Assembly: GCA_937995345.1 (NCBI GenBank)
Contig: CALKKS010000006.1
Span: 22,003 to 86,002, forward strand
From: an uncultured Collinsella sp.
GTDB taxonomy: Bacteria > Actinomycetota > Coriobacteriia > Coriobacteriales > Coriobacteriaceae
DNA: 64,000 bases
Direction of reading: 5' to 3'
Shown one piece after another: positions 38,025-64,000 of the stretch. The notes below the pieces were generated by a model, which was not told the DNA's origin, made no database searches, and saw only the letters and a list, made by a program, of their open reading frames with translations. Position numbers and translations under genes: made by a program. Positions within the stretch are counted from its first letter, which is position 1, and each line of letters begins with the position of its first letter.

Positions 38025-38160
38025 GGGCCGCGTGCCCGCCCGCAATATATTTGATTGATCGCGAGTTCCGCACGCAAAGAAGGCCACTTAATGTGGCCTT
38101 CGTCTTGCGCAGGACTGCCCGAGCAGGCAATCAAATATATTGCGGGCGGGCACGCGGCCC
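38025..38160 (+). repeat. nested hairpin element, family A, copy 1
   Basis: Perfect 32-bp outer arms (38025-38056 and 38129-38160). They enclose a 72-nt conserved core with the inner hairpin gaaggccac-TTAAT-gtggccttc. Confidence 0.9.
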
Positions 38161-55730: not shown

Positions 55731-55739
55731 TTAAAACTG

Positions 55740-55771
55740 AGCGCCCTGAGCCCATAACGGCCCAGGGCGCT
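55740..55771 (+). terminator. hairpin terminator after tRNA-Gln
   Basis: The agcgccctg/cagggcgct stem is followed by TTCTTG. Confidence 0.6.
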
Positions 55772-55901
55772 TTCTTGTGGGCAAGCGGAGGAATTCGAAC
55801 CCGCAAGGGTGCGGAGCTGAGGAAACGCGAAGCGTTTGCCAGCGCAGCACGCAAGGAGCGAAGCGACGCAGCGGGCCGCGGCCGCCGAAAAGGCGGACGC
55901 A

Positions 55902-55917
55902 GAATCCCTCCGTCCCA
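55902..55917 (+). repeat. 16-nt direct repeat of the tRNA-Gln 3-prime end (att-like)
   Basis: gaatccctccgtccca is identical to tRNA positions 56-71 (55711-55726). Confidence 0.85.
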
Positions 55918-55927
55918 CATCAGCCAA

Positions 55928-56503
55928 AGTAGATTTTTGGGACATGCCTAGAAATCTACCTATCAGCCCAGCTCCGCATGGCAAAGGAATAGCCCCTTTG
56001 TCACATTCGGTATCGTTCTCAAATCGCCATCAGCATTTTTCGAGTTATGCGGTCACGCTGCCGACCCACCACGCAATGCCACCGAAATAGCTTGATCGCT
56101 CTTGTCATAATCTGAGCGTATTCAAGCCTTCTTGAACAGAAGCTTCACAGAGTCAAACGCAGCAAAGGAATCAGCTGTCCCCGAAACGGCATCTTCGGAC
56201 TGCAAAAGGCCCCAGAATACCGCCTAACTCGATTTTTGCAGGTGAGAAGGAAATGCAATCGATTCATACGCCTAAATCGGCATCCCCCATGCGACATTAG
56301 ATTCCAGGAGGTCATTTCCATGCAGAAATGACCTCAATAACGCCATGTCTCGTTCCAATCTGGGCCTCTTTGAGCAAGCAGAGGAATTCGAATCAGCCAG
56401 ACAACACAACTTCTCGTCCTGCACGAGAAGTTTCAGCCATAACTTCTCGTTCTGCACCAGAAGTTGAAGGTAGGTTTTCAGGCATGTCCCAAAAATCTAC
56501 CTC
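55928..56503. repeat. non-coding segment of about 576 bp bounded by imperfect inverted repeats of about 37 bp (family E)
   Basis: 55928-55964 gtagatttttgggacatgcctagaaatctacct matches the reverse complement of 56467-56503 with a few mismatches. The interior holds tandem hairpins aacttctcg...cgagaagtt at 56408-56432 and 56441-56465. Confidence 0.7.
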
Positions 56504-56634
56504 CAAAAGACAGGTGCCCCAAGCCCATTAGGACCAAGAGCGCCTTACATCTAGAACATATCAGCCTAGTTCCGAAAAGCGAGCCGCCATCAACAAAGCG
56601 CCGTGTGGCCCCGACGGGCCGGGCATTAAGTTTG

Positions 56635-56664
56635 TCGCGAGTTCCGCACGCAAAGAAGGCCACT
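56635..56664 (+). repeat. family A element, truncated copy 4 (left half of the core only)
   Basis: tcgcgagttccgcacgcaaagaaggccact is identical to the copy 1 core up to the inner stem, where the match ends. Confidence 0.8.
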
Positions 56665-56831
56665 AACCTCGATGTTTTGGACGTGACAGCGAGAGGGGTC
56701 CTGGTATGGCAAGGTGACGTGAAACAAGGCGGCGCTGACCTTCTGGTCGCGCCGCCGAAGTTGAACGTCAGATTGCCGTGCCAGGGACCCTCGCAGCGTC
56801 GAGAGGGCCGCCGTTCGGTAGAACGGCGGAA

Positions 56832-59024
56832 CTAATTATTAAGCATACGGTCGAAGCTTCCCGAGTCGCCATCCCGGTAGTCGGCGGTCATCAGAATCTC
56901 CTGCGGAATTCGTCCGCCCTCACGCAGCACGTTGCGGAACTGCACACGCGTAACCACGGGCAGATCCTTAATCGTCGCCGCCAGGTTCTGCGGCACGCCC
57001 TGGTTGGCAGCCGCGGGCTCGCACTCGCCGCCGGCCTTCATGCGACGCTTGTGCTCGGCGAGCATGGCGCGATACATACCGGCATGTAGACGGATCTCGA
57101 CCACATTAGCATTGCGAGCCTGCTCGACAATACGCGCGCCCTCTCGGTCGATGTCACCCACGTAGTAGACGTAGTTAAAGCGGTAGCCGATCTCGGCCAG
57201 ATAATCATCCAGCGCATGAGAGACACTCGCCTTGCACCCACCGCCAAAGATCACGCCGCCCACCTTAGTGCCAAAAAGCTTGGCATGTTTGCGGCCACGC
57301 AGGAGCTTGACGATTTCGTCGTAGGCATCCAGGTTCTCGACCATAATGAACGGCTTGTCGGCGCCCAGCGTAAAGAAGCCCGTAAAGTGCACCGGACGGT
57401 TGGGGGCGACCTTGATCGCCTGCATGCTGATGCCCTTTTCGGTCATACGCCTGATCAGGCGCTCGCCATGCTTGCCGTCAAAAGCTTTTTCGTCATTGAA
57501 GATCTGGTAGGCGCGCTGGCGGCGCGAGGCAACCGGAGTATCGGCACCGCGGTTTTGCTCGATCCAAGCCTGGATAATCGCGATTTCCTCGGCAATTTTG
57601 CGATTGGACATCTCGTTGTGCGGGGCGCGCTGTGGTGCTTTCTTGCCGTCCTTGCCCTCGACCTTAACGATTTGGGTCTGCTGCTCCTTGATCTTGGAGA
57701 GCGCCGTAGGCGTGGGGACAACCTTGAGCAGCTGCCTGCCCAGCACGCGGGCCAGGGCAAATGCCGAGACCTCGCCGTGGACGGTCGGCTCAGACCGCTG
57801 GGCAGCATTATCAGCTGCGGCAGGCTCAGCCTGTGCATGGGGCTTACGCTTGGAATCTGCCCGGGTATTGCGTTCCTGCTTGGGCGCAGACGAGCGTTTT
57901 TGCGGACGATCAGACTTAGTCTCCTTCGCCGGCTGACGCTTGACCTGATCCACCGGAGTCTCGGCCTTCTCATCTCTGTTTTGCGTCGCCGCCTTCTCGG
58001 CCGCGGCCTCGGCATTTGAGCTACGACCGCCGCGGTGACGGCGGCGACGGGGCTTGCTTGAGGCGCTCTCCCCCGCCTGCTTATCAGCGGACTGTTGAGC
58101 CTTGGCCTCGGTGTCAGCCGCAGGCTGCGACTCGGAAGGTCGCTGCTCGCGAGTCGCTGGCTCAACGGTTTTCTCGGTTTGTTCGATCTTCTCGGCCTGA
58201 GCGGTCGGAGCTGGCTCGCCCTTCTCCTGGCGCTTTACGGGATACGCGCGTCCCGCAAACCCACGGCCGGGACGACACGAACCCGGAGCCTTCTTGGCAG
58301 ACTCCTCTACATCGTCTGCAACCTCGAAAGGCTCATCAACCTCATGCGCGACATCCTGCTGCGCAGCCTTAAAGTGAGCACCGCGACGACGCTTGGGCTC
58401 TTGGGCCTCCACGGGCTTTTGATCCTTCGCGGGCTTCTGCGACTCGGCAGCAACCTCGGTCTCAACAGCCTCGGTATCAAGTTCATCCTTTTGAGCAACG
58501 GCGCGACGGAAGCGCTCCTGCTGAGCGCGGCGTTGTGCATCGCGCTTGCCGCCCCCGCCAAAGCCGCCGCGAGCCGCCTTGGCGGTAAAAGCGCGAACGA
58601 CGTTCTCATCGAGCAGCTCATCGGTATCGATATGCTCACGCGGGGCAACTTCTTCCGCAGCAGGCACCTCAACGGAATCCTCGACAGGCTGCTCCTGGGC
58701 ATTATGAATCTCGGCATTGATGGTATAGAACGCAGGGCGGCCGTTAATGCCGCTACCCTCGATCTTGGTCACAATCTTTGCCGCGATAAGCTCATCGCGC
58801 ATCGCCTTGGTGTCGCATTCCTTATCGACGGAGCGGAAGATCTGCGCCAGGGCGCTCGACTTAATCTTGAGTGCCTTGCGGCAGAGCAGGTCGTAGGCAA
58901 CCAGCTTGGCCCGCTCGGCAGAAAGCGAAGTCTGGCCGCTCAGACGCTCAGCCAGGGCATCGACATTGTTTTGGTTATCGGAATATACCGTCTTGGCCAC
59001 GGGGCCCCTTTCATATGTACACAT
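56832..59024 (-). CDS. orphan JetD-C/DUF2220-like Toprim-domain protein with an N-terminal globular domain and about 350 aa of charged low-complexity sequence
   Basis: The C-terminal ~250 aa contain FIMVENLDAYD (Toprim Glu), FGGG and YYVGDIDREGARI (DxD), then HAGMYRAMLAEH. This is the motif order of the JetD C-terminal domain. The middle is K/R/E/A/Q-rich. An alternative start is GTG 59000, after AAAGGGG. Confidence 0.5.
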   Translation of the reverse strand: MCTYERGPVAKTVYSDNQNNVDALAERLSGQTSLSAERAKLVAYDLLCRKALKIKSSALAQIFRSVDKECDTKAMRDELIAAKIVTKIEGSGINGRPAFYTINAEIHNAQEQPVEDSVEVPAAEEVAPREHIDTDELLDENVVRAFTAKAARGGFGGGGKRDAQRRAQQERFRRAVAQKDELDTEAVETEVAAESQKPAKDQKPVEAQEPKRRRGAHFKAAQQDVAHEVDEPFEVADDVEESAKKAPGSCRPGRGFAGRAYPVKRQEKGEPAPTAQAEKIEQTEKTVEPATREQRPSESQPAADTEAKAQQSADKQAGESASSKPRRRRHRGGRSSNAEAAAEKAATQNRDEKAETPVDQVKRQPAKETKSDRPQKRSSAPKQERNTRADSKRKPHAQAEPAAADNAAQRSEPTVHGEVSAFALARVLGRQLLKVVPTPTALSKIKEQQTQIVKVEGKDGKKAPQRAPHNEMSNRKIAEEIAIIQAWIEQNRGADTPVASRRQRAYQIFNDEKAFDGKHGERLIRRMTEKGISMQAIKVAPNRPVHFTGFFTLGADKPFIMVENLDAYDEIVKLLRGRKHAKLFGTKVGGVIFGGGCKASVSHALDDYLAEIGYRFNYVYYVGDIDREGARIVEQARNANVVEIRLHAGMYRAMLAEHKRRMKAGGECEPAAANQGVPQNLAATIKDLPVVTRVQFRNVLREGGRIPQEILMTADYRDGDSGSFDRMLNN

Positions 59025-59101: not shown

Positions 59102-59138
59102 CAAAAAAGACCGAGCCCGCGTTCTGCGGACCCGGTCT
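59102..59138 (-). terminator. rho-independent terminator of cstA
   Basis: On the minus strand the stem agaccgggtccgc/gcgggctcggtct is followed by TTTTTT. Confidence 0.8.
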
Positions 59139-61143: not shown

Positions 61144-61437
61144 CTTCATCAGCCGCCCGTTATCGTACGGGCTAGCTGTATGTGCTAACCCGCATCAGAT
61201 AATTACTACGCTGATAATGTTTAGCTGATGCGTGAACATGTCTAAGAAATCCTCTTCAATCATGATGCGAACGATCCGTGCGGTTCACATCCCCCAGTGG
61301 ATGAAACGCAGTATGAAACTTTAGTTACCTAAAGTCAACGCAAATTTGTAATGAATTTTCAACTTTTTTTGAATTTCTCGGTATAAAACGCCAGTGACCT
61401 CGGACTTTATCCTGCGACAGTTTTTGCATGAGGGATG

Positions 61438-61588
61438 TCCCTGCGCGCTGCGGGAGCCGGGCGGCACATATGAACTTTCCTGCTCTACAGTCCTGCGCAA
61501 GACGGAAAGCACATTAAGTGCTTTCCTTTGCGTGCGGAACTCGCGATAAAGTTCATATGTGCCGCCCGGCTCCCGCAGCGCGCAGGGA
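61438..61588 (-). repeat. nested hairpin element, family A, copy 3 (inverted relative to copies 1 and 2)
   Basis: Perfect 41-bp outer arms (61438-61478 and 61548-61588) around a 69-nt core. The inner hairpin is ggaaagcac-TTAAT-gtgctttcc when read on the minus strand. Confidence 0.9.
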
Positions 61589-61655
61589 CTCCCATCCCAA
61601 ATCTCAACTCTGTTATCATAATTACGATAATATCCTGATAGCTCAGGAGGTAGCT

Positions 61656-61931
61656 GTGAATATTAGGCCAGTCTCAGATCTTAGAAATCACTACCCGGAC
61701 GTTGAACGCGAAGTCGAACAAGAGGGTCCGGTTTTTCTAACTAAAAACGGGCGGGGCTCTATGGTCGTCATGAGCTTTGAGCAGTACAAGTCGCTGAGCA
61801 ATACAATCGAGAGCGCCCTTGATGCCGCTGATCGTCAGGCCGCCAGCATGCATCTTCGCTATACACACGACGATGTCTTTGGCTCTGTCAGAAAAATGCT
61901 CAACGGCAGTCTCGATGAACAGGCCCTATAA
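61656..61931 (+). CDS. type II antitoxin, Phd/YefM-like
   Basis: The GTG at 61656 follows CAGGAGG. The peptide begins VNIRPVSDLRNHYPDVEREVEQEGPVFLTKNGRGSMVVMSFEQY. Confidence 0.75.
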   Translation: MNIRPVSDLRNHYPDVEREVEQEGPVFLTKNGRGSMVVMSFEQYKSLSNTIESALDAADRQAASMHLRYTHDDVFGSVRKMLNGSLDEQAL

Positions 61932-62229
61932 GCTCCGCTATCTTCCCCTATTTTGGGAGGACCTCAGCCAAGCAGCGTCATATATCGCCTTTGATCTCAA
62001 TAACCCCGCTGCAGCAAATAGGCTTGTCGACAATGTTGAAGCAGGCATACTCGAACATCTCAAGAATCCAACCATGTCACCAACATACCCTTCGACAAGA
62101 AGGCGGTTGCACCCGTATTACCGCTTCTACGTTGGCAACTACATGGTTTTTTATGTCGTCATCGACGACGTTATGGAAGTCCGCCGACTGCTATATAAGA
62201 GACGAGATATTGAGTCGATTATCAGGTAG
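61915..62229 (+). CDS. type II toxin, RelE/ParE superfamily
   Basis: 104 aa overlapping the antitoxin by 17 nt. Contains ...YRFYVGNYMVFYVVIDDVMEVRRLLYKRRD. Confidence 0.75.
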   Translation: MNRPYKLRYLPLFWEDLSQAASYIAFDLNNPAAANRLVDNVEAGILEHLKNPTMSPTYPSTRRRLHPYYRFYVGNYMVFYVVIDDVMEVRRLLYKRRDIESIIR

Positions 62230-62500: not shown

Positions 62501-64000
62501 CTACAGTGTCATGTTCGGATCGGCGTCGACGTCGAACGGCGAGATTTCTCCTCGGTCGAATTTACGGCGGGCGACCTCCGCGATCATGGCGGCGTTGTCG
62601 GTGCATGCCGAGAGAGGCGGCACCGTCACGCGGATGCCTTGGCGCCCGAGCTTCTTGATCATCATCTCGCGCAGATGCGGGTTAGCCGAAACGCCGCCGC
62701 CGATGCAGTATTCCTTGCATCCGGTGGCATGCAGCGCGTTCTTGGCCTTCTTGTACTGAACGTCAAAGACCGCAGCCTCGAACGAAGCCGCCAGGTCGGG
62801 CAGATGAATCGTACGCCCGGCTTTGGTCTCCTGCTCAATGTAGAGCGTCACGGCCGTCTTAAGGCCCGAAAGCGAGAATCGATAGTCTCCCCTACTATTG
62901 AGCGCACGGGGGAAGTCAATCGCGCGGGGATTGCCCGTCTCGGCCAGCTTGGAGATGATGGGGCCGCCGGGATAGCCCAGACCCAGCGCCTTAGCCACCT
63001 TGTCGAAGGCCTCACCCACGGCGTCGTCGAGCGTCTCGCCGAGCACCTCGTAGTCGCCCCACGCCTTGACGTGAACAAGCATGGTATGACCGCCCGAGAC
63101 GAGTGTGAAGATAAACGGCGGCTTGAGATCGGGCTGCGCCAGCAGGTTGGCGAACAGATGACCTTCCAGATGGTTGACGCACACGAGCGGTTTACCGGCG
63201 GCATAGGCAAAGCCCTTGGCAAAGGCGACGCCCACCACCAGAGCACCCACCAGGCCCGGACCCTGTGTCACGCCAACAGCGGCGAGTTCGCTCGGCGCGA
63301 TGGCTCCGCCCTCAAGACCAAGCGATACCGCGGCATCCTCGAGCGCCGCGTCCACGACGCTCACGATGACCTCAACGTGCTTGCGCGAAGCGATCTCGGG
63401 CACTACGCCGCCAAAACGGGCATGAAAATCGATCTGCGTCGAAACCTGATTGGCCAGCATATTGCCGTCCGCATCGATAATCGCCACAGCCGTCTCATCG
63501 CACGAGCTCTCGATGGCAAGCACCAGGCGACGGCGCTCAATTTCGGCGCGTTCCTCAACGGTGCGCTCGGGTGCAGGTAGCGGCCATACACGCTGCTCAG
63601 CCGCCGTCGGCTCCGGCGAAGCGTTGTCGACCGGGAGCACCAAGGGCAGCGGTGCCGTCATGATAAAGGCATCTTTGCCAACACCGTAGTAACCGCGGCG
63701 GCAGCCCGCCTCGGTAAAGCCCAGGGAGGCATAGAGCGCAATAGCGCCCTCGTTGCCATCCTCAACCTCGAGCGATGCTGTCGTACAGCCGAGCATCTGG
63801 GCATCGTAGCTCACATGCGACAGCAGCTTGCGGGCAATACCCTCGCGGCGATGCTTCGGGTCGACGGCAACATCCAGAATCTGTACGTCGCCGTCTACGA
63901 CCATGCCACCGGCAAGCCCCAGCAGCTGACCGTCGTCGTGCGCCACCCACCAGCTGCGCGGCGCCGCAACATCCTCGCCCAGCTCGGACAGGAACATGCC
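62501..64000 (-). CDS. tsaD: RimI-like N-acetyltransferase fused to tRNA t6A synthase TsaD (5-prime end probably outside the window)
   Basis: The N-terminal part carries a GNAT motif (ILDVAVDPKHRREGIARKLL). The C-terminal part is TsaD (LAIESSCDETAVAI...GVTQGPGLVGAL.VG...VNHLEGH). The GNAT part starts mid-domain at the window edge. Confidence 0.85.
   Translation of the reverse strand, partial: GMFLSELGEDVAAPRSWWVAHDDGQLLGLAGGMVVDGDVQILDVAVDPKHRREGIARKLLSHVSYDAQMLGCTTASLEVEDGNEGAIALYASLGFTEAGCRRGYYGVGKDAFIMTAPLPLVLPVDNASPEPTAAEQRVWPLPAPERTVEERAEIERRRLVLAIESSCDETAVAIIDADGNMLANQVSTQIDFHARFGGVVPEIASRKHVEVIVSVVDAALEDAAVSLGLEGGAIAPSELAAVGVTQGPGLVGALVVGVAFAKGFAYAAGKPLVCVNHLEGHLFANLLAQPDLKPPFIFTLVSGGHTMLVHVKAWGDYEVLGETLDDAVGEAFDKVAKALGLGYPGGPIISKLAETGNPRAIDFPRALNSRGDYRFSLSGLKTAVTLYIEQETKAGRTIHLPDLAASFEAAVFDVQYKKAKNALHATGCKEYCIGGGVSANPHLREMMIKKLGRQGIRVTVPPLSACTDNAAMIAEVARRKFDRGEISPFDVDADPNMTL

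Follow-up and report, generated by a model that had tools for sequence, protein, structure and literature searches.

In a 64-kb stretch of Collinsella DNA (the window, by which the whole 64,000 nucleotides analysed are meant), the minus strand carries an open reading frame (ORF) of 730 amino acids (aa) that is, judged by its sequence, a member of the JetD/MksG family of Toprim nucleases with the metal-site residues intact. In Wadjet systems jetD stands in an operon with jetA (kleisin), jetB (KITE) and jetC (SMC), and no such operon is present at this locus. The NCBI annotation lists the ortholog WP_195568736.1 as a 'hypothetical protein'; near-identical proteins are named C. aerofaciens, and a locus 98% identical is found in C. 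aerofaciens strain TSDC17.2-1.1. The layout of the gene and its product is as follows.

56832..59024, minus strand: orphan JetD3/MksG-family ORF, 730 aa, with a TAG stop codon at 56832-56834
58704..59024, minus strand: predicted N-terminal winged-helix (CAP-like) domain, residues 1-107 (hhalign, AlphaFold, colinearity)
57606..58703, minus strand: charged, disordered insert, residues 108-473 (composition, ortholog comparison)
56835..57605, minus strand: predicted helical arm and Toprim nuclease region, residues 474-730 (PADLOC JetD3, hhalign)
57336..57338, minus strand: codon of E563 (VENLD), the predicted metal-binding Glu, corresponding to MksG E236 (profile alignment; invariant)
57147..57155, minus strand: codons of D624-I-D626 (GDIDREG), the Toprim DxD, with D624 corresponding to MksG D279 (profile alignment; invariant)
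56898..56900, minus strand: codon of E709 in the RIPQEIL motif, which is nearly invariant across the whole family

Family assignment and domain layout

That the C-terminal part is a Toprim module of the JetD/MksG type had been proposed in an earlier note made from the sequence alone, and the profile searches bear this out. Three PADLOC JetD3 models match residues 479-717 (E=1.7e-30, 1e-24 and 4e-21), and the motifs quoted in that note are all present in order, as FIMVENLDAYD (E563), VIFGGGCK, YYVGDIDREGARI (D624, D626) and RLHAGMYRAML. The databases are nevertheless divided, in that the protein passes with PADLOC JetD3, whereas Pfam scores it at 18.1 bits for JetD_C, where 22 are required, and at 14.1 bits for DUF2399; close linker-less relatives score above the JetD_C cutoff. 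The long family, that is, the orthologs with the insert, has 75 invariant columns in the arm and Toprim region, and E563, D624 and D626 are invariant in the family. The correspondence of E563 to MksG was read from a family profile, which aligned this Glu to chain residue 342 of MksG (PDB 8B7F), or E236 once the 106-residue tag is subtracted. Mutations E236A and D279A in MksG each cripple its nuclease (PMC10123090). E709, further, may be one of the conserved C-terminal glutamates that have been put forward as alternative nucleophiles of JetD, a role suggested by the same MksG work (PMC10123090). No GajA, OLD or ATPase domain was found on the protein in Pfam, NCBIfam or PADLOC, and it does not belong with the OLD/Gabija-type nucleases on that ground.

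The same note had suspected a globular, possibly winged-helix N-terminal domain joined to the nuclease as an added module. The winged helix stands; the added module does not, since the protein is colinear with operon-encoded JetD3 from end to end. With the linker deleted in silico, the best JetD3 model covers profile positions 14-339 of 346. A set of 33 JetD3 proteins, each encoded ahead of ORFs of JetA and JetC size, served as a second comparison; one of their loci, L092, was verified by matches to JetA3 (E=8e-134) and JetC3 (E=6e-104). To this set the linker-deleted long family aligns with an hhalign probability of 99.9% (E=8e-33), and the alignment, which takes in the N-terminal helix-wing element, spans template positions 16-344 of 351. 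Taken alone, the N-domain aligns with linker-less relatives at a probability of 97.5% (E=5e-12), but with canonical JetD3 at only 8%. Its AlphaFold model has the topology H-H-beta-H-H-beta-beta (core predicted local distance difference test score, pLDDT, ~75), and the top Foldseek matches of this model are all winged-helix DNA-binding domains, none of them significant (best E=0.077). A CAP domain followed by a Toprim domain is the published description of JetD (PMC10586767). The end-to-end alignment and the winged-helix topology therefore argue for a whole JetD interrupted by an insert and against a foreign fusion. On this colinearity, the N-terminal domain is taken to be JetD's own CAP/winged-helix domain.

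Between the two domains lies the long charged, disordered region that had been described earlier and that the composition upholds. Residues 108-473 (~365 aa) are 36% charged and 13% hydrophobic (19% K+R, 17% D+E, 16% A), with an acidic first third and a basic last third. Across orthologs the insert ranges from ~130 to 400 aa and its sequence is not conserved, but its composition and its acidic-then-basic polarity are kept in nearly all of them, and indels within it stay in frame (66 distinct orthologs). Sister-clade and canonical JetD3 proteins are without it. Several database matches proved to derive from this region and were set aside as spurious, namely those to NCBIfam PurK (19 bits, where the cutoff is 326) and Pfam Cementoin. 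A direct sequence search of solved structures gave no match, and the long-family profile run against the same structures matched only low-complexity proteins, again by way of the linker.

Distribution, neighbourhood and the search for partners

The homolog census that had been suggested for this protein was run as an exhaustive search of 1.84 billion representatives, and returned 302 relatives at E<=0.001 in three tiers. The long forms, of 486-770 aa, make up about 12 clusters, all with the N-domain, a charged linker of varying length and the C-domain; a few are linker-less proteins of 380-400 aa at ~35% identity; the remainder are canonical JetD3 proteins of ~340 aa. A neighbour-joining tree built on the C-terminal region supports the long form at 100/100 and its grouping with the linker-less solitary proteins at 98/100, and places the two together apart from operon-encoded JetD3. 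The long form is present in at least ~575 GTDB species-level genomes which, among the matches listed, are all Collinsella. A genome-collection scan, which recovered near-identical Collinsella loci only, was used for synteny.

The order RimI-TsaD, CstA, the JetD-like gene, a peptidoglycan (PG)-binding protein, polyprenyl synthase, phosphotransferase system (PTS) and GntR is invariant in 52 loci of at least 14 kb. In four divergent loci, including that of C. tanakaei, where the orthologs are 37-50% identical, the gene still follows cstA directly, and tRNA-Gln, the PG-binding gene and the polyprenyl synthase come after it. The surrounding block includes envelope and division genes (the PG-binding protein, MurB, a PASTA kinase and a PcsB-like protein). 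Phages gave no match to the gene and no true plasmid carries it, the only close 'plasmid' match being a mislabelled 900-kb piece of chromosome. The gene is a vertically inherited, fixed chromosomal gene across Collinsella. Wadjet has a patchy distribution through horizontal transfer, typical of defence islands (PMC10123090); this gene, at one syntenic locus throughout the species-level genomes counted above, does not spread in that manner.

Two further observations concern these records. 'Plasmid 6' of C. aerofaciens TSDC17.2-1.1, at 899,693 bp, has tsaD, alr and acpS aboard and looks like a chromosome piece (PLSDB NZ_OY725714.1 to NZ_OY725718.1), and NZ_OY725714-716 are records of only 423-486 bp. 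A single ORF of 498 aa at 62501-63997 of the window joins RimI (a GNAT acetyltransferase) to TsaD, and the tsaD call of the RefSeq ortholog is longer, at 2385 nt.

The JetD-like gene clearly encodes a real protein under purifying selection. Over the 66 distinct orthologs, the ratio of nonsynonymous to synonymous substitution rates (dN/dS) is 0.07 for the N-domain, 0.31 for the linker and 0.009 for the C-domain, the last a very low value that is biased because the loci were picked on C-domain similarity. Five neighbouring genes have ratios of 0.034 to 0.052, and the dS of the gene is similar to theirs.

The absence of JetABC genes nearby, remarked on in the earlier note, holds over a wider field. 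No JetA, JetB or JetC is encoded in the window, where ten other large ORFs lack any Jet match and a single ORF, a fused ABC transporter, exceeds 1000 aa. No Jet gene occurs within 10 kb on either side in the 52 syntenic loci, nor in the four divergent ortholog loci, and no real gene of JetC size exists in 85 loci totalling 1.29 Mb. Stop-free frames of at least 900 aa do occur in the syntenic loci, but they overlap cstA and the target gene on the opposite strand and were read as guanine-cytosine (GC)-rich shadow frames. A tblastn search with JetC3 found no match in ~0.93 Mb of one C. aerofaciens assembly, a weak test given an insensitive query; the JetA3 query matched nothing anywhere and so is uninformative. 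In canonical type III operons, jetD directly adjoins jetA.

The sister proteins are solitary as well, in at least three contexts. Short solitary JetD-like genes lie directly upstream of pPIWI-RE modules comprising restriction endonuclease (REase), DinG and PIWI genes (locus L084, 9989-18773; locus L168, 10001-18722), and these two loci have differing upstream neighbours, with Mokosh-like MkoC and type-I-specificity-like genes near. From this arrangement, a JetD-type nuclease and pPIWI-RE may be functionally linked. Two ORFs of 522 and 1197 aa upstream in L168 were considered as JetA and JetC and rejected; one is a type-I-specificity-like protein, the other a coiled-coil protein, and their matches are only weak. 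One sister gene is next to a resolvase among unrelated genes, and another follows a small helix-turn-helix (HTH) gene; one sister cluster is the 'JetD domain-containing protein' of C. intestinalis in NCBI.

Other JetD-type loci came to light in passing. In L139 (8929-13117) and L132 (9644-13778), a gene for a JetD3-like protein of 387-388 aa (PADLOC JetD3 E=5e-23) and the beginning of cas9 (E=6e-113) overlap on the same strand; this places a solitary JetD-type nuclease beside a type II CRISPR effector. At L089 (9617-12473), the ORF after a JetD3 gene has 601 aa and fuses JetA3 (E=2e-175) to a C-terminal JetC3 remnant (E=1e-30); without a full JetC, it is apparently a decayed type III Wadjet locus.

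The immediate surroundings of the gene are more changeable than the gene order. The tRNA-Gln and the Phd/ParE toxin-antitoxin pair lie where they had been placed before, but the view that this context suits a defence or mobile-DNA function has not survived comparison, since the synteny is fixed genus-wide while the toxin-antitoxin pair and the repeat debris vary between strains. The interval from the 3' end of tRNA-Gln(ttg) to the gene (55731-56831 in the window) is an insertion hotspot that measures 243 bp to ~3.7 kb among genomes (L161, L163, L165 and L166). Inserted there in L163 are genes for an HTH_3 protein and an unknown protein of 535 aa, along with a HicA-like cassette, and in L165 and L166 a Peptidase_S58 gene; in the window, fragments resembling a tRNA 3' end lie at 55778-55807 and 56371-56400. 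With or without insertions, the JetD-like gene is always on the cstA side. The hotspot adjoins the JetD-like gene, which is not itself carried by an inserted element. The GC content of the region is unremarkable, and no integrase or other mobility gene lies nearby in the window. The Phd/ParE pair (61650-62229), 2.5 kb from the gene, recurs in only one of the 52 other syntenic loci (L057) and is bracketed by two copies of a dispersed repeat; the pair is an insertion that varies by strain and has no link to the JetD-like gene. The repeat, with four copies against none expected by chance, lies at 61430-61596 and has related copies at 38058, 56634, 61526 and 62376. One is a near-perfect hairpin of ~170 nt (-137.5 kcal/mol, z=-16.8) that looks like a miniature inverted-repeat transposable element (MITE). 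Such repeats may explain the contig breaks on both sides of the cstA-JetD pair in many metagenome-assembled Collinsella genomes.

The ends of the transcription and translation unit have the following features.

58998..59012, minus strand: probable true start, GTG at 59000-58998 (codon 9), with a ribosome-binding site (RBS), GAAAGGGG, at 59012-59005
59103..59137, minus strand: terminator-like imperfect hairpin with a T6 run, between the cstA stop codon and the gene, read from the sequence
56808..56829, minus strand: perfect 9-bp stem with a 4-nt loop, beginning 2 nt past the stop codon, without a U-tract

The GTG at 59000, rather than the ATG at 59024, is the likely true start; the RBS precedes it at a spacing of 4 nt, as read from the sequence, and it agrees with homolog N-termini (MAxKLYSD...) and with gene calls of 722-723 aa in relatives. 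The upstream hairpin, although not called by a consensus terminator scan, suggests that in this strain the gene is transcribed as a unit of its own. Given that the gap to cstA is only 38 bp in locus L165, co-transcription with cstA may vary by lineage. The downstream stem-loop may be a transcript-end structure.

Interpretation

The explanation that we favor, at a probability of about 0.55, is that the gene encodes a complete JetD3/MksG-family nuclease of a solitary lineage, insert-bearing in Collinsella, that would act as a metal-dependent DNA endonuclease without JetABC. A JetD lineage would have turned solitary, with no jetABC operon, and its Collinsella branch would have gained an insert of 130-400 aa between the CAP winged helix and the arm and passed it on vertically since. 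By analogy with MksG and JetD, the protein may dimerise through its Toprim domain and cleave DNA with E563 and D624/D626 coordinating the divalent metal. Contacts to DNA would come from the CAP domain and from the basic part of the insert, the latter adding affinity. Given that JetD is autoinhibited and freed by JetABC, a solitary protein needs another form of control, and the linker is the leading candidate because its charge pattern is conserved. Its acidic part might gate or mask the DNA cleft, standing in for JetABC control, although this is conjecture. We infer in this way nuclease activity, dimerisation, independence of JetABC, gating by the insert and a biological role. As to that role, restriction or processing of extrachromosomal or aberrant DNA seems slightly more likely than pure housekeeping; the sister-clade context favors immunity, while the fixed genus-wide locus favors a domesticated cellular function. 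The discovery of homologs in a fixed non-defence context, which had been named beforehand as an outcome that would speak against a defence role, is much of what the synteny reveals, but the closest solitary relatives sit in defence islands.

Several findings weigh against the proposal of a JetABC-independent nuclease. In the Wadjet systems studied, all four subunits are needed in vivo, and JetD alone cuts only at high concentration and unspecifically, being autoinhibited until released by JetABC (PMC10586767). The search for a jetABC set elsewhere in the genome covered only the 64-kb window and about 927 kb of one C. aerofaciens genome, the latter with an insensitive tblastn query. AlphaFold, given residues 410-730 and a 35-sequence alignment, reached a mean pLDDT of 52 (below 40 for residues 410-468) and yielded no reliable Toprim model. 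Finally, beyond the bias in the C-domain dN/dS, the C-domain is only 51-68% identical in divergent genomes, compared with 70-82% for CstA, the PG-binding protein and the polyprenyl synthase. The claim that the gene is more constrained than its housekeeping neighbours is consequently withdrawn, because the loci had been selected on C-domain similarity and the divergent orthologs trend in the opposite direction. Foldseek matches of the C-domain model, to clamp loaders and others at a template-modelling (TM) score of ~0.1, are meaningless and were discarded.

The dependence of characterised JetD on its partners would be preserved if the protein were a conventional JetD working only with JetA, JetB and JetC encoded elsewhere in the chromosome. 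This is quite unlikely. It draws on the four-subunit requirement and the autoinhibition of JetD alone (PMC10586767), and most of the genome lies outside the search coverage. Yet Jet genes are missing from the window, from the 52 syntenic loci and from the loci of the divergent orthologs, JetC3 has no match in the 900-kb C. aerofaciens record (a weak test), the sister-clade proteins are solitary too and form with the long form a clade apart from operon JetD3, and canonical type III operons hold jetD directly beside jetA. A domesticated housekeeping factor, processing DNA for chromosome maintenance or division, or RNA in the manner of the Toprim RNase M5, is a more serious contender, though we consider it doubtful. 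The presence of the gene at one locus genus-wide, strong purifying selection within the C. aerofaciens complex, a dS near that of the neighbours (consistent with co-inheritance), the envelope and division genes around it and its absence from phages and true plasmids all fit such a factor. Against these must be set the sister clade in defence islands beside pPIWI-RE and Mokosh-like genes, a C-domain that evolves faster than housekeeping neighbours at genus depth, and the chance that synteny merely reflects a stable chromosomal block. Further, we know of no JetD family member with a housekeeping role.

The possibility that the gene is a catalytically inactive DNA-binding or scaffold protein, keeping the fold only, is very small. 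A disordered insert of this length might act as a scaffold for interactions and the Pfam JetD_C score is under its cutoff, but Glu, DxD and RIPQE are invariant in both the long family and canonical JetD3. Most improbable is a mobile-element defence gene that arrived with an element at tRNA-Gln and works with the nearby toxin-antitoxin pair. The tRNA-3'-end-like fragments and repeats between tRNA-Gln and the gene, the variable length of that interval and the proximity of Phd/ParE brought it into consideration; it is largely refuted by synteny, as the gene is present on the cstA side regardless of insertions, and it is further countered by the rarity of the repeat-bracketed toxin-antitoxin pair, the unremarkable GC content and the lack of integrase or mobility genes nearby.

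A bolder extension of the solitary-nuclease proposal, tentative and on balance doubtful, is that a Wadjet effector was exapted in Collinsella, and that this JetD/Topo VI-A-like enzyme, acting without a dedicated SMC sensor and controlled by its charge-patterned insert, has a conserved and possibly essential role in chromosome or nucleic-acid maintenance in a genus dominant in the human gut. If so, the linker-less sisters by pPIWI-RE and Cas9 genes would show JetD nucleases to be effector modules reusable beyond Wadjet. To our knowledge, the only role understood for JetD and MksG is that of effector to a loop-extruding SMC sensor, which gives both specificity and release from autoinhibition. 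The persistence without that sensor of a whole JetD lineage, one branch of which is a fixed part of the core chromosome in an abundant gut genus, raises the question of how a potentially lethal Toprim nuclease is targeted and restrained when it acts alone. Current annotation misses the family, given the 'hypothetical protein' label of NCBI and the Pfam score under cutoff, and rules that call complete systems, as described for Wadjet, would presumably pass over a solitary JetD.

Comparison with known systems

An undescribed architecture had been suspected from the start, and the literature search agrees with this, in that no account was found of a JetD with this architecture, of a solitary JetD or of Wadjet in Collinsella. 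The protein shares with JetD3 of type III Wadjet the end-to-end layout, winged helix at the N-terminus and Toprim at the C-terminus, and a common motif set (ERSYEIxGDEK-like, VENxD, GDIDxxG and RIPQEI). It differs in the lack of adjacent JetA3 and JetC3, in the insert of 130-400 aa, in its one genus-wide locus and in its separate clade. MksG of Corynebacterium glutamicum (PDB 8B7F) has the same Toprim metal site and two-domain layout, although the sequence kinship is very remote (profile E=0.011, around the two motifs only) and MksG, unlike the Collinsella protein, is encoded within an mksBEFG operon and has no disordered insert. MksG cleaves DNA in vitro without MksBEF (PMC10123090).

With Topo VI-A and Spo11 the protein would share the acidic Toprim metal site and the CAP-type winged helix, as published comparisons of JetD and MksG suggest. 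The protein itself gave no direct sequence, profile or fold match to Topo VI-A/Spo11, and no Topo VI-B-like gene is among its neighbours in the window or at the divergent loci. Y100 is invariant within the long clade only and is not kept in the sister clade, and no catalytic tyrosine is established.

The nearest relatives are the solitary short JetD-domain proteins of Collinsella and its relatives, represented by WP_270472169.1 of C. intestinalis, which NCBI names a 'Wadjet anti-phage system protein JetD domain-containing protein'. Their C-domains are 35-36% identical to that of the long form, their N-domains are homologous and JetABC is lacking in both. The short proteins, by contrast, have 379-397 aa and no insert, and are encoded by accessory genes in varied contexts that include pPIWI-RE defence islands.

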